Origin: a virus
Virus genome (UHGV): UHGV-0212520
Direction: 5' to 3' (one strand)
DNA: 42,545 nt
In this document: positions 4,182 through 31,357 of the stretch, piece by piece
Position numbering within the stretch: the stretch's first letter is position 1
Layout of the letters: each line of letters starts with the position of its first letter
Translations under genes and position numbers: made by a program
The notes under the pieces: generated by a model
What the model was told of the DNA's origin: nothing
The model's database searches: none
The model's input: the letters and a program-made list of their open reading frames with translations, nothing else

Positions 4182-6449
4182 CTATTCCAAATCCTCCTCT
4201 GTCACCACCAGCATTTCATTCGGTTCGTATATTGTCTTCGGTATTTTGTTGTCCGTTATCCGGGTGTTCAGCCTGTAACGGCCCGGTATTATCTGATTGT
4301 TTTCGTCTGTTCCAGGTACAAGATACCCGGCCTCAACCATTTTCTTAATCTTCCCGCGTTCTATGGCTTCTTTGGAGTTAAACGCCTTCGCGTTGGGGTC
4401 AGACTGTGCCAGCTTATTCGCTGCGGCCACCGTGATACCTTCGTTGCCGTTGTAGGTTCCTTCCGCCAGTTCAAACGCTGCCAGTATCGTGGCTTCTGAA
4501 CTGTTGACGGCGTTCTCTACGGTTTTACGTACATTTTCTTTACCTTCCTTTGTCAGCCCTTCTTCGCGCTCTTTCTCCTCGTCAGTCTTGAACGGCTCGA
4601 AGCCCCACGGCATCAGCACAAGCGCCTTGTGCGGCTCAGGCAGGTCGAGGTTTACTATTGTGCCGTATTCCTCTGTGTTACCCAGGAACTCAACTGCACG
4701 GTACTCTTTCGGTGGCGGCGCTTCACGGAACTGTACCGACTCCAGCACCATGCCAACTGTCTTCTGTTGCGGCCCGTGCTTAAATTTCGAGTGGTATACG
4801 TTTATCTGTCTGTCGGTAGCGCGTTCGATTGTCAGTTCCACGTCGACGCCCGCGTACAGCGCCCCACTACCGCGGGCTTTCTTTCCACCTTTAGGTGTGT
4901 GGTGGACAACGCCTACCGCAGCTTTAGTTGCATCACGCACTTCTTTCAGGATGGCGATAACTTTACCCATGCCGATTGCCGTTGATGAGCTGTTCTCGTC
5001 GAACTTATCAATCGTCAGAGCCAGGGTCTGGTTGAGGGTGTCGAACGCAACCATCCCAATCGGCTCGTCGCCAGCAGTTTCACGCATTATCTTAATCAGG
5101 CTTTTCAGTTTTCCGACTTCACCCATATCGATGACGTGTACATAATCTTTACCCTCAACGCCGTATTTAGCCGCGAGTGCATCGATACGTGTACGTGTGG
5201 CTGCGCCACCCTCGCCGTCGATATAGAAATGGTGGCAACGCTGGGTGTCAGCCCCCGCAAACCGGTATCCGGTGGCGCTGAGGTACATCATCCCCAGCGT
5301 ATAGAACGATTTGTACGTGCCAGATTCCCCGACGATATCCCAGATACAATCCGACGGCATGTACCCTTCTACGACGAAATCAGCCTTTACCGGGTCCGGC
5401 AGCTCGTCCTCCTCTGAGTCATCCTCGTCTTCCAGGTCGTCCAGGCTGCATGAAACAGATTCACGCGCGCCCCAGCCAATAGCCTCCGCGACTTCACTGA
5501 ACGGCAGACCAGTCGCATCGCACGCGTACTTCCACACCTCTTTCGGTGCCATGCCTTCGGTCGCCGTAATGTCGGTGTCGTGAATCATGGTTACGTTCGG
5601 CGCTTCGTAGCCTTCGCGCGGGAAGCACAGCAGGAAGTCGTCCGGGCGCGGTGTCGGGTCGCTGTAGTTCTCTGCATGTTCCGGTGTAGCTGGCATCTTC
5701 AGACCGCGGGGTGTCATGACGCCGCCGTACTCAAACGCCAGTGCCTCGAACGCGTCTGTAAACGCGGTGCGCAGTTCTTCCGGTATCTGGTAATCCGATG
5801 CGCTGCTCACCTCGTAATCCGGGGCGCCTTCCAGTAATTCGTCCGGGTCAATCAGGTCGTTGCGGCGCGACCAGATAACAGTAGAGCCTACCGGCGGCAG
5901 GTACATCGGTTGCGAAAGGGTGAAACCGCTGCGGTCGGCACCCATGCCTTTGAAGAAGTGCTCAAGCAAGCCATGACGAACACGGATGACGTCACCACCT
6001 TCGACTGGGCGGGCCAGCGGCATGACGACACGGAACCGCGGCGACTCATCGTTATGTGATGCCGTGGTGTAGAGGCACATAGCCCGTCGGCTGCGCTTAA
6101 CCAGGCACACCGCTTCCTGATACTCTTCCGGCGTTGCACTGTCGAAGTCAAGATACGCTAGTGACGATTTGCTTACAGACGCGTCACAGCGGTAAAAGAA
6201 GCCTTTACGCGCCCGCTTAAGGTCCCCGGTTTCCGGGTCTTTTACGGTGCTGTGCGTAGAGTCGCACGCAGCGGTGATATACCCCGGCGCGGTCTTAGGG
6301 TTAATCCCGCCACGGACAGCATCAAGCGGCTGGATTAACTCTTTCAGGTCGTCCAGTGTTGCTGTGTGTGTGGTTCTGACGTTTATATCCTTTTTCTCTG
6401 CCCGCGCGTTGCGACGAGACCACGAGTAGGATAAAATTACATCGGACAT
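4182..6449 (-). CDS. Putative replicative primase-helicase (C-terminal RecA-fold/RepA-like ATPase)
   Basis: 755 aa; C-terminal region GESGTYKSF ... VVHHTPKGGKKARGSGALYAGVDVELTIER resembles RepA/DnaB-like ATPase helicases; N-terminal domain unassigned; RBS GAAGGA; ends in TEEDLE. Confidence 0.6.
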   Translation of the reverse strand: MSDVILSYSWSRRNARAEKKDINVRTTHTATLDDLKELIQPLDAVRGGINPKTAPGYITAACDSTHSTVKDPETGDLKRARKGFFYRCDASVSKSSLAYLDFDSATPEEYQEAVCLVKRSRRAMCLYTTASHNDESPRFRVVMPLARPVEGGDVIRVRHGLLEHFFKGMGADRSGFTLSQPMYLPPVGSTVIWSRRNDLIDPDELLEGAPDYEVSSASDYQIPEELRTAFTDAFEALAFEYGGVMTPRGLKMPATPEHAENYSDPTPRPDDFLLCFPREGYEAPNVTMIHDTDITATEGMAPKEVWKYACDATGLPFSEVAEAIGWGARESVSCSLDDLEDEDDSEEDELPDPVKADFVVEGYMPSDCIWDIVGESGTYKSFYTLGMMYLSATGYRFAGADTQRCHHFYIDGEGGAATRTRIDALAAKYGVEGKDYVHVIDMGEVGKLKSLIKIMRETAGDEPIGMVAFDTLNQTLALTIDKFDENSSSTAIGMGKVIAILKEVRDATKAAVGVVHHTPKGGKKARGSGALYAGVDVELTIERATDRQINVYHSKFKHGPQQKTVGMVLESVQFREAPPPKEYRAVEFLGNTEEYGTIVNLDLPEPHKALVLMPWGFEPFKTDEEKEREEGLTKEGKENVRKTVENAVNSSEATILAAFELAEGTYNGNEGITVAAANKLAQSDPNAKAFNSKEAIERGKIKKMVEAGYLVPGTDENNQIIPGRYRLNTRITDNKIPKTIYEPNEMLVVTEEDLE

Positions 6450-24777: not shown

Positions 24778-25190
24778 TGGGCTACTTTGAGGACTTAACC
24801 AAAGCGTTCGATGTGCCGCTGGTAGCCTTCGGAACCACCAACGGCATCAAGGTCGCGCTTGAAAACATCGACGCGCCGACATCAACAGATACGCCGTATC
24901 TGGCTAGTTACATGCTACTTGCGGATACTGAGCAAGCAGATTTGTTCTTCACGGAACAACGTTCGGGCATTTATCAGGTAGACATTAACTACGCATCGGT
25001 GAAAGGTAGCGCGCCAATCAATAAAATGGCAGACTTACTTAACACGGCGTTTAAAGCAGGCAAGTCATTTTCGCGTAACGACATCTGCGCCGAGGTTCAA
25101 TCGGTTAGCCTGGGGCCGCTGATTGTAGAAAATGGATGGGCCAAACGGCCATTGTCAATTAACTTTATTGCATTCACCAAGAGGCTGTGA
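24774..25190 (+). CDS. Putative tail terminator/completion protein
   Basis: 138 aa immediately upstream of major tail protein; synteny only. Confidence 0.4.
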   Translation: MMGYFEDLTKAFDVPLVAFGTTNGIKVALENIDAPTSTDTPYLASYMLLADTEQADLFFTEQRSGIYQVDINYASVKGSAPINKMADLLNTAFKAGKSFSRNDICAEVQSVSLGPLIVENGWAKRPLSINFIAFTKRL

Positions 25191-26362
25191 ATATGGCTAC
25201 AACTCCTTTTAAGGGCGCGAATACCGCGCAATTCTATGTGGCGGAAGTGACCCCGGGCGTAACACCGGCAAACCCGGTATGGTCGCCGTTGCGTAACACT
25301 GGCGGCGTTCCCGCGGTAACCCGAGATGCGCTGACTTCCAACGAACTGGACGGCAGCCGAGAAACTACATCCATCCGCACTGGTAACAAACAGGTCAGCG
25401 GCGAGTATGCCATTGAGCTTAGCTCCCGTAGCCAGGATGATTTCCTTGCGGGTGCTATGACTTCTACGTGGCAGGATGGGGTAACCTTATCCGCTGTCGG
25501 AATTACGGTAGACCCGGTAGCAAAAACTTTCACCCGCGACACTGGCAGTTTCATTACTGACGGAGTAGAGGTCGGGGACCTTCTGTATTTTGACGCTTTA
25601 ACCGGCGATAACTCTAAGCCGTTTATCGTTACCGCAGTAACTGCTACTGTGGTTACGGGTGCAGGTATTCAACACACCCTGACCGCCGAAGGTCCTATCG
25701 AGACCGACGGTAAAACGGGTGACAAGCTGGAAACCGGTAACGCATGTAAGACTTTCTCCATCCTGACATGGTTCAAAGGTCAGTGTGGGAACCCAGACGC
25801 GTACATGTTGACCAAAGGCGTGGAAATCTCCGGTTTCACCATTGAACAGGCCGTAAACGCGATGGCGACGGGCAGCTTCCCGTTCATCGGCCTGAGTCAG
25901 GAGATTCTTACCGCGCCGCCAGCAGGTTCCGACTTCTCTCAGGTCACATTCACTGACGAGCCGTTCTCTTCTGTAGATGTGTCTGTGTTCGACGGTTCTA
26001 CGCCGTTGCGTTGCGATACTCTGACCATCACCAACGACAACGGTGCTTCCGCGCAGTTCGAACTCGGCAACAGTAGCGTTGCGTTCGTGGAACGTGGTCG
26101 CGCAGCTAATACCTTCTCCATCTCCGGTAAGCTGTACGACATGGCGATGATCCAGAAGTTTATCAACGAGCAGCAGGTAGAGATTAACTCTATTCTGGCG
26201 GGGGTAAACGGAGCTATGTCTTTCAGTTTGAAACGTGCCGAACTTACGGCGGTTACACCAGAGATTGGGGGGCCAGAGTCAATCACTCAGTCCGTTGAAG
26301 GGCAGGCCACCGGCAACCAGTACCAGTCGTCTATTGTTATCCAGCGTATCACCTACGCATAA
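25187..26362 (+). CDS. Major tail (tube) protein
   Basis: 391 aa (probable ATG at 25193, RBS AAGAGG); last gene before terminator and upstream of chaperone/tape-measure genes. Confidence 0.55.
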   Translation: MNMATTPFKGANTAQFYVAEVTPGVTPANPVWSPLRNTGGVPAVTRDALTSNELDGSRETTSIRTGNKQVSGEYAIELSSRSQDDFLAGAMTSTWQDGVTLSAVGITVDPVAKTFTRDTGSFITDGVEVGDLLYFDALTGDNSKPFIVTAVTATVVTGAGIQHTLTAEGPIETDGKTGDKLETGNACKTFSILTWFKGQCGNPDAYMLTKGVEISGFTIEQAVNAMATGSFPFIGLSQEILTAPPAGSDFSQVTFTDEPFSSVDVSVFDGSTPLRCDTLTITNDNGASAQFELGNSSVAFVERGRAANTFSISGKLYDMAMIQKFINEQQVEINSILAGVNGAMSFSLKRAELTAVTPEIGGPESITQSVEGQATGNQYQSSIVIQRITYA

Positions 26363-26363
26363 A

Positions 26364-26392
26364 ACTAAGGCCCCTTTCGGGGCCTTTTTCTT
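26364..26392. terminator. Bidirectional intrinsic terminator (AAGGCCCC-N4-GGGGCCTT family)
   Basis: ctaaggcccctttcggggcctttttc; T-tracts on both strands. Confidence 0.7.
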
Positions 26393-26549
26393 ATTCCTTC
26401 AATTGCATAGGGTAGAAGTTAACGACTTCTCCTTTATCCCGAAGCCGTGAATATTCATCTAACGCATCTTCCTGGCTACTTACGGCATAGATATCATTCC
26501 ACTCGTCCCACTCTTTGTCGTATACGCGGATTACATATATTGTTTTCAT
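26391..26549 (-). CDS. Small hypothetical protein, last gene of minus-strand moron operon
   Basis: Probable start at ATG 26549 (MKTIYVIRVYDKEWDEW...), 52 aa; the track ORF extends to 26606 but would overlap the upstream gene. Confidence 0.35.
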   Translation of the reverse strand: MKTIYVIRVYDKEWDEWNDIYAVSSQEDALDEYSRLRDKGEVVNFYPMQLKE

Positions 26550-26556
26550 TACGGTC

Positions 26557-26787
26557 TCACTCATCAATGTTACTTCGATACTCCCGTAACTTCTCCAGAC
26601 TTTCAATCGCTTCCGCTAAGTCTGTTCCGGTGTCCTTGTGTCCGCGCAAGCCCATGCACAATAACTTCTTCAATGCGTGCTGTAACGCCGGGTCGCGGAT
26701 GTCGAAGGCGCGGAGCACATCATAAACGTCTACTGTCATAGTGCTGCCGTGGATGTTCGTCATTGTGCGGTTGTATTTTGAAGTCAT
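26557..26787 (-). CDS. Hypothetical protein in moron operon
   Basis: 76 aa; ATG overlaps stop of upstream phosphoesterase gene (ATGA). Confidence 0.5.
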   Translation of the reverse strand: MTSKYNRTMTNIHGSTMTVDVYDVLRAFDIRDPALQHALKKLLCMGLRGHKDTGTDLAEAIESLEKLREYRSNIDE

Positions 26788-27914
26788 CCCAGCATCTCCG
26801 GTGAAATAGTTAAACGTGCGACTTCGCCATATTCGGCGCTATAAGTAATTACATTTGCGCTACGGCCAGACATCCACCCACCGCGGGAAGCATATGCATC
26901 TTTCGCCGCGAGAGTGCGATGTTGTTCCACTACCATATTCCTACTTTCTACAATCTTTTGATGGTGGAGATGCCCGACATGTGCGTAACTGTACTCGCTT
27001 TCGCCAAATGCTTTTCTGAACTTAGCTATCATAATGGGTTCGACCACCTCAAACCGGCATTTATGCCCGTGCGTAAAGAACAGCGTCGTTTTGCCGTGCT
27101 GGACCATCTTGTAAACATCCGGCGACGTATCGACGAACACACGCGGCTCATTGTCATACAGCGTACTGAACATCTCAGCCAACCAAATCATGCCACTCTC
27201 GTCGTGATTTCCTTGCACGATAAGCAAGCGAACATTTTTGTGTTTAACCAGCGCCATATCAACAACACGGCGGACCATACGAATCATGTAGCGGACCAGT
27301 TTCTGATAGCGTGTGTCTGCGTCCAACACATGGCGCGACTCAGGGGTAACGGCATCCAGACTATCGAAGTGCGCGAAGTCACCTAACAGGTTAATAACTC
27401 CTGTCCCTGCATCCGGTGCTTTCTGAAACGCTGCATCGAACCAGCGAGAGAACAGGTCTTCCGCGATTTTCATATCCCAGTCGTCGCCGCTCTCGTCGGC
27501 CCAGGCCAGCATGCCAAGATGAAAATCAGATACCGTGTAAAGATTGAGTAGTTTATCATCGCGTTTAGCGCGGGCAGCTTTAACAGGCGCAACTGGCGTA
27601 ATCTCCGACTTCATGCCCTCGATTACGGCTTTCATCAACTCGACCTGACGTTCGGCGTCGGTGTCAGTCTTAACCCATTGCAGTTTAGTATTGCCAAACT
27701 CGTCCACCAGCGACGATGTACCTTTAATCTTGTAGCCGTCTGGTACAAGGTGGCTGACGTCACGTCCGTGGCCTACGCCTTTCTTAGCCAGCTTCGCTTT
27801 ACGGATGCGAATAACGCGGTCTGAGATGCCGTATTTACGGGCGATGTCGATATTCTTCACACCGGCGTTCAATTCTTCCTGCAACTGTTCGTCGGTTATT
27901 TTCTTCCGGGCCAT
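26784..27914 (-). CDS. N-terminal HTH domain fused to calcineurin-like metallophosphoesterase (SbcD/Mre11-like motif set)
   Basis: 376 aa; N-terminal ITDEQLQEELNAGVKNIDIARKYGISDRVIRIRKAKL (HTH); then SDFHLG (DxH), LLGDFAHFD (GDxxD-like), VQGNHDE (GNHD/E), FTHGHK, HVGHLHH (GHxH); RBS GAGGAA. Confidence 0.6.
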   Translation of the reverse strand: MARKKITDEQLQEELNAGVKNIDIARKYGISDRVIRIRKAKLAKKGVGHGRDVSHLVPDGYKIKGTSSLVDEFGNTKLQWVKTDTDAERQVELMKAVIEGMKSEITPVAPVKAARAKRDDKLLNLYTVSDFHLGMLAWADESGDDWDMKIAEDLFSRWFDAAFQKAPDAGTGVINLLGDFAHFDSLDAVTPESRHVLDADTRYQKLVRYMIRMVRRVVDMALVKHKNVRLLIVQGNHDESGMIWLAEMFSTLYDNEPRVFVDTSPDVYKMVQHGKTTLFFTHGHKCRFEVVEPIMIAKFRKAFGESEYSYAHVGHLHHQKIVESRNMVVEQHRTLAAKDAYASRGGWMSGRSANVITYSAEYGEVARLTISPEMLG

Positions 27915-27951: not shown

Positions 27952-28143
27952 TCACTTCTCTTTAACATTCGAGTTGCAAGCCCAGATTAAAATAAATAAC
28001 CACGGCAACAGAACCCAGCCAAGAAACAGATTAGCCATGAATATCGCTAATTTCGCTTTATGGTTGCGGAAGTACGCAACCAGGAAAGGTGTGAAATAGG
28101 CGAGAAGTGCAAACAGAATTAAGGAAACCGGTAAACTGGACAT
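27952..28143 (-). CDS. Superinfection immunity protein (T4 Imm-like small membrane protein)
   Basis: YFTPFLVAYFRNHKAKLAIFMANLFLGWVLLPWLFILIWA matches the Imm_superinfect pattern (YFLPSI..F.R.H.N..AIF.LNL.LGWT..GW..ALIWA) from memory; start set to ATG 28143 (RBS AAGGGG); first gene after promoter B4. Confidence 0.6.
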   Translation of the reverse strand: MSSLPVSLILFALLAYFTPFLVAYFRNHKAKLAIFMANLFLGWVLLPWLFILIWACNSNVKEK

Positions 28144-28173
28144 TTTAAACCCCTTCATTGTTGGTGTAAGTGA

Positions 28174-28202
28174 ATAGTACCCTATTATATTGGGGTGCGC
28201 AA
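28174..28202 (-). promoter_or_regulatory. sigma70-like promoter, family B copy 4 (TTGCGC-N17-TACTAT on minus strand)
   Basis: Reverse complement: TTGCGC accccaatataataggg TACTAT tcactt; drives the imm/phosphoesterase operon. Confidence 0.55.
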
Positions 28203-28309
28203 GTAATGTGATAGAATAATTTTGCGCCTAGTGTCGCACACGAAAAGCGGGTGGTTCCCGTCTGGCGCATTAACCTTAACCAGTAACCTCTTAACCAAAG
28301 GATTAAAGA

Positions 28310-28726
28310 ATGAAACTTTCTGATTTTTATTTCGAAGAGAAAGCACTGGTGGGCAAGAAGATGCCGATTCTCCTGCCGAATGGCGAAGACTCCGGGGAAT
28401 GGCTTAACGTTGTAAGTCCTGATGCGGATGTCGCTGTTAAAGCGGGGCGTGCTTTCATTATCGCGTATCGTCGCGGGCTGGCACGTTTCGAAGAACTGGA
28501 AAAAGCCGCCAAAGAATCCGGCGACTATACTGAATATAACCTGGCGGTTAACGAACTGGCAGAAGACCTCAACCGGCAACTCGCGGCAGAAGTCGTAAAC
28601 GGCTGGAGCTTTGATGAGCCTTTCTCTAAAGAAGCATTTAGCAAATTGCTGGACCAGTTCAAGGCATTGGGCACACAGGTAGCAGCGTTCCATAACGCTG
28701 AGCGCAAAGCATTACAGGAAAAGTAG
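28310..28726 (+). CDS. Tail assembly chaperone (lambda gpG-like)
   Basis: 138 aa acidic protein immediately upstream of tape measure; -1 frame ORF continues past its stop. Confidence 0.55.
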   Translation: MKLSDFYFEEKALVGKKMPILLPNGEDSGEWLNVVSPDADVAVKAGRAFIIAYRRGLARFEELEKAAKESGDYTEYNLAVNELAEDLNRQLAAEVVNGWSFDEPFSKEAFSKLLDQFKALGTQVAAFHNAERKALQEK

Positions 28727-29091
28727 ACGCGCTGTACAGGTTCGCCACCTACGAGTTTGTGGATAAGCATAAAATCAGAGAGTTTGATTCTATAGCTGAC
28801 GGCCACGAACAGGCGCTTATCGCGATGGGTGTAATCGATAAGAAAAAACGTGCAGCGCGACGGGGTGGGCCAGAATGCCCGCCCCTTTTTATATCCACCT
28901 TTGAGACGTACTGTGACATTAAGTTTACGCGACACGTGCGCGAGGACGCTGTAGTATTGTTTGCAAGAGAATCCGTTACGTGGCAAGACCTGAAAGCCTA
29001 TCTCGATGTTACGCAAAAACAGCTTAGCCTGTTCGAGATAGACATTATCATGGGCTTAGAAGCAATCTTTGAAGGTAGAAATCATGGCTGA
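28310..29091 (+). CDS. Predicted tail assembly chaperone frameshift fusion (gpGT-like, -1 PRF near 28718-28726)
   Basis: -1 frame is open from the G stop to 29091, ending inside the tape-measure start; candidate slip at G_GAA_AAG immediately before the TAG stop; the track's independent ORF 28759-29091 has only a GTG start and no RBS. Confidence 0.4.
28718..28726 (+). promoter_or_regulatory. Candidate -1 programmed ribosomal frameshift site (GAA AAG TAG)
   Basis: Lys codon AAG can re-pair as AAA in -1 frame; placed at last sense codon before the stop; lambda G/GT uses GGGAAAG at the equivalent position. Confidence 0.35.
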
Positions 29092-31357
29092 TACCGCTAG
29101 TTTGATAGTACGAGTATCATCGACCGGCGTCGATAAAACCACATCACAACTGAACGGGCTTACTAAGGCGGCGGGGGCCGCTGCCGCTGCCGTTGTCAGT
29201 CTGGAAACTGCTAAGCAGGTATTCAGCGCGCTGGTGGACTCCCAGCGCAACTTCGACAAGCTGAACTCTGGCCTCATCACAATGACCGGGAGCGCTGAGA
29301 ACGCGGCTAAGGCTTTCAGCGTCCTGCAACAGTTCGCAAAAGAAACCCCGTATGGCCTCAATCAGGCGGTAGAGGGGTTTACCAAGCTTGTTGCACTGGG
29401 CCTGAACCCCAGCAAAGAGGCATTAATCTCCTACGGCAACACCGCGGCTGCTATGGGTAAAGACCTTAATCAGATGATTGAGGCGGTTGCCGACGCCAGT
29501 ACCTTTGAGTTTGAGCGACTAAAAGAGTTCGGCATCAAGTCGTCGCAACAGGCGGATACAGTTTCGCTCACGTTCCGCGGCGTAACGACCACGGTTAAAA
29601 AGAACTCCGAAGAGATTCAGAAATACCTGTTAAACATCGGTAACACTGATTTTGCGGGGGCGATGGAAACGCGCTCGAAGACCTTAGATGGTCAATTATC
29701 AAGCCTCGCCGACTCTTTCGACGGCCTTGTTCTTGCGGTAGCGCAATCCGGTTTTGGCGACGCCGTAGGCGAGCAAGCTGCGACAGCGGAAGATGCTATC
29801 ACCGCGCTCACCGACGCCATCGCATCTAATGAGATAGCGGCGACGCTCCAGGATTGGGTGACACTGTTCAATGAATCGTTCAAGTTTATTTCTGATGCCC
29901 TGAATGGCCTGGCATACGACACCGAGGACAAATCCGCGGATATGTCAGACTCGCTGGGAACTATCCCTGACGCCATCCGAGAGTGGTTGCCCGACATCCA
30001 GCAGACATTCCATGAGGTTATTGCGTGGTTCCAGCGCATCGACGATTATGCTGTAGCGCTTGGCCAGACCCTTGCCGACGTGTTTGACCCGAGCAAAACG
30101 GCAGCGCTCACATTTAAAAACCTGACCGCAGAGGCCGACGCCGCATACGACGCCAGCATAAAACGCGCAGAGGCAGAATCCCAGGCTATTACCAACAGGT
30201 CTAAGCAGCGTAAGAAAGAAATTGAGGAACAGCGCAAGCAGTATAATGAGCGCAAGCAGCAAGAAATTGACCTGGCCAGCCTTGTTAACGGAAAGGGTGG
30301 AACTGGTGGGGCAGGAAACACCAACGACAAAGACGCGAAAGCCGCCGCTAAGAAAGCGGAGCAATTGCGTAATCAGGCCCAGGATTATCTGGACACTTTG
30401 GCCCGCCAGAACAATGATGAGTTAAAGGCTATCGACGCGCAGGAGCAGCAGAAACTGGCTAAAGCGAAAGAGTTCTACAGCCAGGGCGCGCTGTCACTGA
30501 AAGAATACGAGCAAGCAAAAACGGCTATTGTCCTGGAAGCAGGGCAAAAACGACAAGATGAACTGGATAAACGCCAGAAAGAAGCCCAGGAAAAGCAGCA
30601 GAAAGGCGATGACTTCATGGCCCAGATTATGGGGCAGAACGCTGCCGAGCTTGATCTCCTCGACATCCAGGAACAGCAGAAACTGGCCGTCACCGATAAG
30701 TATCGAGAACAGGGACTTATTAACGAGGGACAGTATCAAGCTGCACTTAACGCTATAAATGAGCAGTATGCCACGAAGCGCGCCGACGCAACGGCAACGG
30801 CCTTCGGTAACATGGCTTCAAACATTGGTTCGGCTTTGGGCGAGGCTTCTGGTGCGTACAAGGCATTCGCCATCGTGCAGGCCACCATAGCCACGTATAC
30901 CGCAGCTATTGAAGCGTACAAGTCAACGGCAGCTATCCCTGTAGTTGGCCCGTTCCTGGCCCCCGTAGCCGCTGCCGCTGCCGTTGGAGCAGGTATGGCG
31001 CAGGTTTCCGCTATCAGGTCCGCGCGTGAGCAGGGCGGTCAGTTATCCGCGGGGCAGGCTTCCACCATCGCCGAACGCGGTAAACCAGAAGTTATCATGC
31101 CCGCTGGCGCGTCGCGTGTGCGCACCGCACAGCAGATGAAAGAAATTATGGGACAAAACGGGTCTTCTTCCGGTCCGTCTAATGTTACCATCGTAAATAA
31201 CACATCGAGTAAGATTGGCAACGTATCCACCGAACAAGATGATGAAGGCCGTTTACGTATCATCATCGAAGAACAAGTGGCTGCGTCTTTGCAGAACAGC
31301 AACAGTAAGATTAGCAAGGCCCGCAAGGCCACAAGAAATGCGCCGGGGTTCAAGTAA
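29084..31357 (+). CDS. Tail tape measure protein
   Basis: 757 aa from ATG 29084 (RBS GAAGG); long Ala/Gln/Glu-rich coiled-coil; downstream of chaperone pair. Confidence 0.8.
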   Translation: MADTASLIVRVSSTGVDKTTSQLNGLTKAAGAAAAAVVSLETAKQVFSALVDSQRNFDKLNSGLITMTGSAENAAKAFSVLQQFAKETPYGLNQAVEGFTKLVALGLNPSKEALISYGNTAAAMGKDLNQMIEAVADASTFEFERLKEFGIKSSQQADTVSLTFRGVTTTVKKNSEEIQKYLLNIGNTDFAGAMETRSKTLDGQLSSLADSFDGLVLAVAQSGFGDAVGEQAATAEDAITALTDAIASNEIAATLQDWVTLFNESFKFISDALNGLAYDTEDKSADMSDSLGTIPDAIREWLPDIQQTFHEVIAWFQRIDDYAVALGQTLADVFDPSKTAALTFKNLTAEADAAYDASIKRAEAESQAITNRSKQRKKEIEEQRKQYNERKQQEIDLASLVNGKGGTGGAGNTNDKDAKAAAKKAEQLRNQAQDYLDTLARQNNDELKAIDAQEQQKLAKAKEFYSQGALSLKEYEQAKTAIVLEAGQKRQDELDKRQKEAQEKQQKGDDFMAQIMGQNAAELDLLDIQEQQKLAVTDKYREQGLINEGQYQAALNAINEQYATKRADATATAFGNMASNIGSALGEASGAYKAFAIVQATIATYTAAIEAYKSTAAIPVVGPFLAPVAAAAAVGAGMAQVSAIRSAREQGGQLSAGQASTIAERGKPEVIMPAGASRVRTAQQMKEIMGQNGSSSGPSNVTIVNNTSSKIGNVSTEQDDEGRLRIIIEEQVAASLQNSNSKISKARKATRNAPGFK

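Follow-up and report, generated by a model that had tools for sequence, protein, structure and literature searches.

In phage T4 the proteins Imm and Spackle jointly cause superinfection exclusion, and Imm stops translocation of the genome of the secondary phage (PMC7677548; PMC6832632). A membrane fragment of the tape measure protein gp29 is reported to co-purify with T4 Imm, a loop of Imm lies against the helical-bundle domain of the tape measure in an electron cryo-microscopy map, and exclusion is reduced by the substitutions W50A and R33A (2026 preprint, bioRxiv 10.64898/2026.03.06.709160). Here, a T4 imm-like gene was analysed in the virus genome UHGV-0212520; the whole stretch of 42,545 nucleotides (nt) is referred to as the window, and the gene (27952–28143) encodes a protein of 63 residues. 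The protein almost certainly belongs to the T4 Imm family, PF14373, and by analogy with T4 the evidence leans slightly towards a role in the exclusion of superinfecting phage.

A second system that invites comparison is HK97 gp15, a YebO-like, moron-encoded small inner-membrane protein. Its gene is situated within the tail operon, between the chaperone and tape measure genes, and its exclusion depends on the tail region of the incoming phage (PMC3594210); gp15 is cited as an interactor of the tape measure protein in the T4 Imm preprint (bioRxiv 10.64898/2026.03.06.709160). The likeness to the window gene, which also adjoins a tape measure module, is positional and functional: no YebO was found among the Pfam matches of the window protein at E <= 0.1, and HK97 gp15 is a single gene expressed from the prophage, whereas the window gene stands in a four-gene cassette. 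Llp of T5 and Cor of T1/phi80 are likewise phage-encoded proteins that protect the infected cell from further phages, but they are receptor-masking lipoproteins of the outer membrane which block adsorption, and they are unrelated in sequence.

The window was assigned by megablast to the genus Kagunavirus (subfamily Guernseyvirinae), a group of K1G-like siphoviruses which infect Escherichia coli and have genomes of ∼42–45 kb. The closest matches (fEg-Eco19, DUEC01 and K1G) showed ∼89–90% nucleotide identity over ∼85% of a 25-kb query. DUEC01 is a fully annotated, 90%-identical relative with the genome organization typical of virulent Guernseyvirinae; its annotation includes neither an integrase nor a repressor, and the window phage was for this reason treated as virulent. 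Virulence is one point in common with T4; others are the helix order and the motif Y..P...A..R......IF...L..W....W.....W of T4 Imm (P08986, 83 residues). The window protein is, however, 20 residues shorter, with an N-terminal helix that is seven residues shorter; the window virus is a siphovirus and T4 is a myovirus; and the gene lies beside tail genes, whereas T4 imm has early genes around it and is placed between genes 42 and 43. The homologues from Kagunavirus and Jerseyvirus (K1G, NC_027993, annotated as 'immunity to superinfection'; DUEC01; Bas74; Sciku; Shashou) are 92–97% identical to the window protein and have the same cassette and neighbours, and at the level of annotation the gene is already known.

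The imm-like gene and its predicted protein

The gene and its start region are as follows.

27952–28143, minus strand: Imm-family gene, 63 codons plus stop (PF14373, PHROG 1039, BLASTP to T4 Imm, AlphaFold2 model, substitution rates)
28144–28158, minus strand: translation-initiation region with a Shine–Dalgarno-like AAGGGG (28155–28150) at 6-nt spacing from ATG 28143 (read from the sequence)

The open reading frame (ORF) was confirmed at exactly the coordinates given in the first-pass annotation, which had left the strand unstated; it is on the minus strand and its translation is MSSLPVSLILFALLAYFTPFLVAYFRNHKAKLAIFMANLFLGWVLLPWLFILIWACNSNVKEK. The ATG at 28143 aligns with the start codon of the relatives. 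A 68-residue form is annotated in some GenBank records and begins at an in-frame ATG 15 nt upstream (28158, five additional residues). It was rejected: this ATG has no Shine–Dalgarno sequence, Jerseyvirus lacks it, in phage Ivi it is not in frame with the gene, and it is probably unused. In Salmonella phage LP31 (L005, OL436139, ∼2498–2503) the ATG start is replaced by ACG and the imm-like gene is unannotated, which may reflect gene loss or a sequencing error.

The PF14373 (Imm_superinfect) hidden Markov model search that had been proposed as a check was run, and with 47.5 bits the protein exceeded the gathering score of 27.9 (E = 1.7e-12, profile positions 2–42 of 42); T4 Imm itself (from NC_000866) scored 58.2 bits. 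PHROG 1039 ('immunity to superinfection') was matched with E = 7.9e-22, and NCBIfam gave no match. An ungapped alignment of 54 residues with 28% identity was obtained between the window protein and T4 Imm by BLASTP (E = 9e-11), and tblastn with the window protein reached the imm genes of T4-like phages directly (E 1e-5 to 1e-2). The T4 Imm-like identity first assigned to the protein thus held well above the PF14373 threshold, and the protein can be taken with near certainty as a bona fide family member. A second PF14373 copy in the window was rejected: of the 770 ORFs in the window that are 30 residues or longer, the family profile matches a single one, the imm-like ORF.

Residues Y16, P19, R26, W43 and W48 are invariant in eight diverse phage members. 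Across 121 family members W43 and W48 are invariant, with Y16, F17, P19, R26, I34, N38, L41, G42 and W54 nearly so, and the window protein has the core residues Y16, P19, R26, W43, W48 and W54. In the alignments, window R26 corresponds to T4 R33 and window W43 to T4 W50. Most relatives have A and V in place of T18 and L49 of the window protein.

The ratio of nonsynonymous to synonymous substitution rates (dN/dS, Nei–Gojobori) was 0.05–0.23 against four relatives, with dS up to ∼2; the ORF is therefore a real gene under purifying selection. A close homologue is carried by 351 GenBank phage records, many among those listed being annotated as a superinfection immunity protein, and is also found in 36 IMG/VR genomes. 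The G+C content of the gene (41.7%) is below that of the genome (51.0%), the whole cassette (48.5%) and the neighbouring phosphoesterase gene (50.6%), as is expected because the product is a Phe/Leu/Ile-rich membrane protein.

An AlphaFold2 model of the window protein was generated from a 121-sequence alignment (predicted local distance difference test score 94.1, predicted template-modelling score 0.74). The modelled helices comprise residues 4–16, 18–25, 31–41 and 45–55: an N-terminal membrane helix (residues 4–25, kinked at P19) leads into a basic loop (R26–K30), followed by two short helices (31–41 and 45–55) that are linked by a G42-W43-V44 turn. The protein had been described at first pass as spanning the membrane twice. 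Two hydrophobic stretches are indeed present (Kyte–Doolittle 19-residue means of up to 2.19 and 2.15), but the second is split by AlphaFold2 into two 11-residue helices. A T4-type Imm model (P0017, 83 residues) has helices 2–23, 25–33, 38–48 and 52–64 in the same layout, offset by seven residues, and an extra C-terminal helix, 68–82. This C-terminal hydrophilic tail or helix (T4 65–83) is lacking in the window protein, which ends 7–8 residues past the core. With Foldseek, only PF14373 proteins were matched among viral models, and the Imm model of a T4-like Serratia phage gave TM scores of 0.77/0.84 and a root-mean-square deviation of 1.0 Å. No relative was found in the searched copy of the PDB by Foldseek or by a family-profile search of PDB sequences. 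As modelled, the window protein shares the fold of the T4 Imm family, consisting of an N-terminal membrane helix and a hydrophobic core of three short helices.

PF14373 extends well beyond phage exclusion proteins. With the window protein alone as query, 5,056 clusters at 50% identity were recovered (E <= 1e-3), and the profile search found more than 3,100 clusters at 90% identity among the 8,000 candidates scored. Some members are located on megabase bacterial contigs without phage structural neighbours, where glyoxalase, EamA and restriction–modification genes are found next to them, and fusions to RDD or SHOCT domains also occur. PF14373 genes on large bacterial contigs were recorded at 5139–5897 and 6001–6228 (L049/L050) and at 6001–6291 (L051/L052). 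The bacterial loci include one tandem pair, with an RDD-domain fusion, beside restriction–modification genes, and another gene with lpxD and mntP on either side and a small helix-turn-helix (HTH) gene as a neighbour.

The reverse cassette and the adjoining tail operon

The imm-like gene is the promoter-proximal member of a four-gene minus-strand cassette, which is situated between the tail tube gene (25187–26362, PF18906, in opposite orientation to the imm-like gene) and the chaperone and tape measure genes. The features of this region are listed below.

28174–28212, minus strand: sigma-70-like promoter candidates ATCACA-17-TATAAT (28212–28184) and TTGCGC-17-TACTAT (28202–28174), from a consensus scan (10/12 matches)
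26784–27914, minus strand: second cassette gene, 376 residues, HTH-like N-terminus plus calcineurin-type metallophosphoesterase (PHROG 704, E = 5e-165)
26557–26787, minus strand: third cassette gene, 76 residues, start overlapping the previous stop (ATGA) (PHROG 2452, E = 2.5e-36; homologue annotated in DUEC01)
26391–26549, minus strand: fourth cassette gene, ∼52 residues from ATG 26549, ORF open back to TTG 26606 (159-nt homologue annotated in DUEC01)
26367–26386, both strands: bidirectional intrinsic terminator-like hairpin of 8 bp with six G–C pairs (terminator scan)
29069–31357, plus strand: tape measure protein, 762 residues (Pfam TMP_3, E = 1.5e-09, 38.3 bits, below the 41-bit cut-off)

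The promoters and the terminator of the cassette are candidates from consensus matches only; the TTGC and TAyTAT elements are invariant in a cross-genus alignment of Kagunavirus and Jerseyvirus. The hairpin is placed to end both the tail-tube transcript on the plus strand and the reverse cassette on the minus strand. The 376-residue gene starts 37 nt past the stop codon of the imm-like gene and has its own ribosome-binding site (GAGGA). A terminator or attenuator within this gap was rejected, as its folding was no better than that of shuffled sequence, and the thermodynamic folding of the RNA of the imm-like 5' region was likewise no better than shuffled. Co-transcription of the two genes, which the first-pass annotation had asserted, is plausible because they have the same orientation and no terminator lies between them.

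The description of the neighbour as a phosphoesterase agrees with its canonical metallophosphoesterase motifs (DFH130, GDFAH178, GNHD235, GH283 and GHLH314), but its Pfam scores are below threshold (Metallophos_2, 25.7 bits, cut-off 27; Metallophos, 19.6 bits, cut-off 21.5). No relative was found by sequence in the PDB, and its GenBank annotations are diverse, with 'DNA polymerase II small subunit' at one end and 'DNA repair exonuclease' at the other. Its alleles fall into two classes, 82–98% and 55–61% identical to that of the window (loci L019, L039, L040 and L045–L047), which are distributed independently of Imm variant and genus. The fourth cassette gene had no family match in the Pfam or PHROG searches.

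The same arrangement was observed in all 36 related IMG/VR genomes and in DUEC01, Ivi, Ro145c2, wksl3 and LP31. Kagunavirus and Jerseyvirus uniformly keep the imm-like/phosphoesterase pair; the cargo downstream of the phosphoesterase varies. In the corresponding slot of Hafnia phage TS33 (Guernseyvirinae) neither a PF14373 gene nor the phosphoesterase is found. In the TS33 locus (L055, OR844384, 3316–3833) the first cassette gene encodes a protein of 119 residues that begins MKRITGIAIALTAFIGC and is lipobox-like, and the RNA leader described below is kept; this protein could represent another type of exclusion factor acting at the envelope, encoded at the same place. Since TS33 carries other cargo there, the slot has the behaviour of an accessory locus; among the relatives examined, none had it empty. 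The earlier phrase 'first gene of the moron operon' fits loosely. The gene is the first, and the reversed unit, with its promoter-like site and terminator-like hairpin, looks independent, as a moron in the sense of Juhala and Hendrix would be, but 'moron' in its prophage sense is inapplicable because the phage is virulent and there is no prophage expression.

On the other side of the imm-like gene, a structured RNA (plus strand, 28221–28285, core 28224–28268) lies in the 5' leader of the chaperone/tape-measure operon. It consists of an outer stem and two hairpins within a conserved island. The alignment comprised 13 distinct Kagunavirus, Jerseyvirus and TS33 sequences; 98.9% of its cells pair, and compensatory double changes occur at six of the 14 pairs, a number that was reached by none of 500 shuffles (slid controls, 0–1); the G–U pairs are compatible with the plus strand only. 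The Rfam model RF02996 (int-alpA) matches 28221–28285 over its full length with E = 6.4e-6 and 34.2 bits, just below its gathering score of 35.8, which is why a gathering-threshold Rfam scan had missed it. After the RNA come 3–5 (U)AACC repeats, whose sequence is complementary to the GGUU of the hairpin-2 loop. Just upstream of it is the plus-strand sequence TTGGGG-16-TGaTAGAAT (28190–28217), with an extended −10 element at 28209–28217 which overlaps the −35 element of the minus-strand ATCACA-17-TATAAT. The overlap suggests that transcription of the imm-like cassette and that of the chaperone/tape-measure operon start from overlapping promoters which point in opposite directions, and there may be competition between the two candidates for RNA polymerase.

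The tail assembly chaperones are encoded by two ORFs (28310–28726 and 28702–29091, plus strand) that resemble a G/GT-type pair. From 28702 onwards the −1 frame, that of the second ORF, is open, and it overlaps the last part of the first ORF at CAG GAA AAG TAG; PHROG 15027 (259 positions) covers both ORFs; a programmed −1 frameshift between them is likely. The tape measure homologue in DUEC01 is annotated as a tail tape measure protein. By hydropathy the window tape measure has one strongly hydrophobic segment (residues 619–649), and T4 gp29 likewise has one.

Relevant expression data were available from Kagunavirus K1B4 only; a literature search on Guernseyvirinae transcriptomics gave nothing further of relevance. 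In RNA-seq of this phage the 'superinfection immunity' gene 045 peaks at 110 min or later and is grouped with methylase and DNA polymerase genes, with capsid and tail genes peaking earlier (PMC12645636). The link to lysis drawn by the K1B4 authors for gene 045 is an interpretation, and only two points were taken from the data: the gene is transcribed, and its regulation is not shared with the tail genes around it.

N-terminal variants and the tape-measure module

Kagunavirus Imm proteins occur in two N-terminal variants, type A (MSSLPVSLILFALLAYF..., as in the window) and type B (MTGITMFFLIIIVLVYF..., as in Ivi), which have ∼30% identity over residues 1–25 and are nearly identical over residues 26–63. 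The chaperone/tape-measure module also exists in two types, ∼55–60% identical to each other. In the IMG/VR genomes L013–L036 the combinations A/1 (14 genomes), A/2 (one, L014), B/2 (eight) and B/1 (one, L033) were counted, so that the variant tracks the module type in 22 of 24 (Fisher exact p ∼1e-4, shared ancestry being ignored). A type-1 chaperone was present in 41 of the 45 type-A records from GenBank, the exceptions being HSE2, UTEC10, EcoPhCCP1 (PQ384582) and LM02P1 (OZ035819); in fEg-Eco19 (OL539727) a type-1 chaperone is present but a type-A Imm is not.

For the comparison of the divergent segments the variant patch was taken as 28068–28158 (minus strand) and the module as 28310–31357 (plus strand). 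Sliding identity is 42–70% in the tape-measure/chaperone DNA, rises to 95–97% in an island at 28300–28201, falls to 67–79% in the patch at 28200–28001 and is ∼90% in the background. Because only ∼150 nt of conserved DNA parts the divergent segments, plain linkage suffices for the association and co-adaptation is not claimed. The Imm variant shows no association with tail-tube alleles 2–3 kb distant, and more than 1.7 kb of recombination-permissive DNA intervenes.

The two variants could in principle represent allelic, tape-measure-specific immunity, each being matched to one module type, so that phages with different modules would escape each other's exclusion. The association is as such immunity would predict, but we regard this reading as doubtful. 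If it were true, the mismatched recombinants (LM02P1, EcoPhCCP1, fEg-Eco19, L014 and L033) would fail at self-exclusion, the tape-measure-binding mechanism reported for T4 would be extended to siphoviruses, and there would be an explanation for why such genes recur beside that for the tape measure, as in Guernseyvirinae, Skatevirus and, by analogy, HK97.

In Salmonella phage BS5 (L053, NC_054646, 3962–4156), an unrelated siphovirus of the genus Skatevirus, a PF14373 gene (63.2 bits) stands in a reversed cassette in the interval between the major tail and tape measure genes. The tail tube and tape measure proteins of BS5 have no detectable similarity to those of the window, and the Skatevirus cassette has no phosphoesterase. 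The Skatevirus-type phage AB4P2 (L054, 2992–3186) shows the same placement of a PF14373 gene, before the chaperone-position and tape measure genes.

Proposed superinfection exclusion and its alternatives

By analogy with T4, it is proposed that the window encodes an Imm-family inner-membrane protein which excludes later related virions, possibly through their tape measure; taken as a whole, this explanation is placed just on the probable side. Expression of the small protein in the infected cell would start from a separate host-type promoter and not depend on the tail operon, and the protein would reside in the inner membrane. The infected cell would become refractory to DNA delivery by later virions of the same or related Guernseyvirinae, with adsorption not being blocked. 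The three-helix core, with R26 and the G42-W43 turn, would bind the tape measure inserted into the inner membrane by the incoming tail, and the bound tape measure would be kept from opening a conduit for the DNA. Binding to the tape measure is ranked below exclusion itself. The position of the gene is in favour of the proposal: it adjoins the tape measure module, in the opposite orientation to the tail genes and with a promoter-like site of its own. Also in favour are the family membership, the conserved residues, the modelled fold and the purifying selection, the grouping of the K1B4 homologue with DNA polymerase and methylase genes and not with structural genes, the similar placement of the Skatevirus gene and of the unrelated HK97 gp15, and the tracking of the module types by the N-terminal variants.

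Several observations weigh against this proposal. Within PF14373, experimental evidence was found in the literature for T4 Imm only, and no experiment was found there on any Guernseyvirinae homologue. The family is huge and has many cellular members and fusions, and its name is therefore no guarantee of function. No similarity between the window tape measure and T4 gp29 was detected by BLASTP (E > 1), so that the T4 interface cannot be mapped by sequence and the transfer of the mechanism is by analogy, not by homology of the target. The C-terminal helix of T4 Imm (68–82) is missing from the window protein. The imm-family gene is not near the tape measure gene in T4, AP22 or mycobacteriophage Dussy, and in other phages genes of the family are located among early or immunity-region genes. 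The association of the variants with the module types is explicable by linkage, and viable recombinants exist (L014, L033, LM02P1, EcoPhCCP1 and fEg-Eco19). The only relevant transcriptome shows a late peak, with coarse timing and several infection rounds sampled.

The protein might protect the envelope, stabilizing the inner membrane of the infected cell against damage by secondary adsorption (lysis from without or 'traumatisation'), or modulate holin function or lysis timing, while DNA entry is not prevented; the K1B4 study classed its homologue as late and tied it to lysis (PMC12645636). That statement is, however, an interpretation and not a test. The lysis genes of DUEC01 (two holins, an endolysin and spanins) lie elsewhere, far from the imm-like locus, and in T4 such phenotypes come along with exclusion, not instead of it; a role of this kind is considered unlikely. 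We also find it improbable that the product is a generic PF14373 membrane protein unrelated to phage entry, acting for example in host takeover or signalling with the HTH-metallophosphoesterase. The conservation of the imm-like/phosphoesterase pair across Kagunavirus and Jerseyvirus would be consistent with such a partnership, as would the PF14373 genes found on bacterial chromosomes beside housekeeping or restriction–modification genes and the RDD and SHOCT fusions. Yet in Skatevirus the PF14373 gene occupies the same slot without a phosphoesterase, the phosphoesterase alleles (93–97% versus 55–61% identity) are unlinked to the Imm variants, and the residues needed for exclusion by T4 Imm are conserved.

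Exclusion might instead be aimed at heterologous competitor phages that share the host rather than at sister virions. The core (residues 26–63) is almost invariant while the tape measures are only 48–60% identical, and an invariant core would suit a target other than the phage's own variable tape measure, such as a host factor. On the other hand, T4 Imm is not known to act beyond the T-even phages, HK97 gp15 excludes HK97 itself (PMC3594210), and the N-terminal variant follows the tape-measure module of the phage's own genome, and a weapon of this kind is thought quite unlikely. A chance ORF or a decaying remnant, which the ACG at the start position in LP31 might suggest, is refuted for the window by the dN/dS values, the GenBank and IMG/VR homologues, the profile score above threshold and the confident fold.

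Exclusion of later related virions, as stated for this gene, adds little to what is routine annotation in Kagunavirus and Jerseyvirus. Phages of these genera are candidates for therapy and chassis for synthetic biology, and an exclusion gene would affect interference within cocktails of related phages. If the tape measure is indeed the target, these phages would provide a convenient siphovirus system for the specificity of immunity, with two Imm variants, two tape-measure types and recombinants between them.

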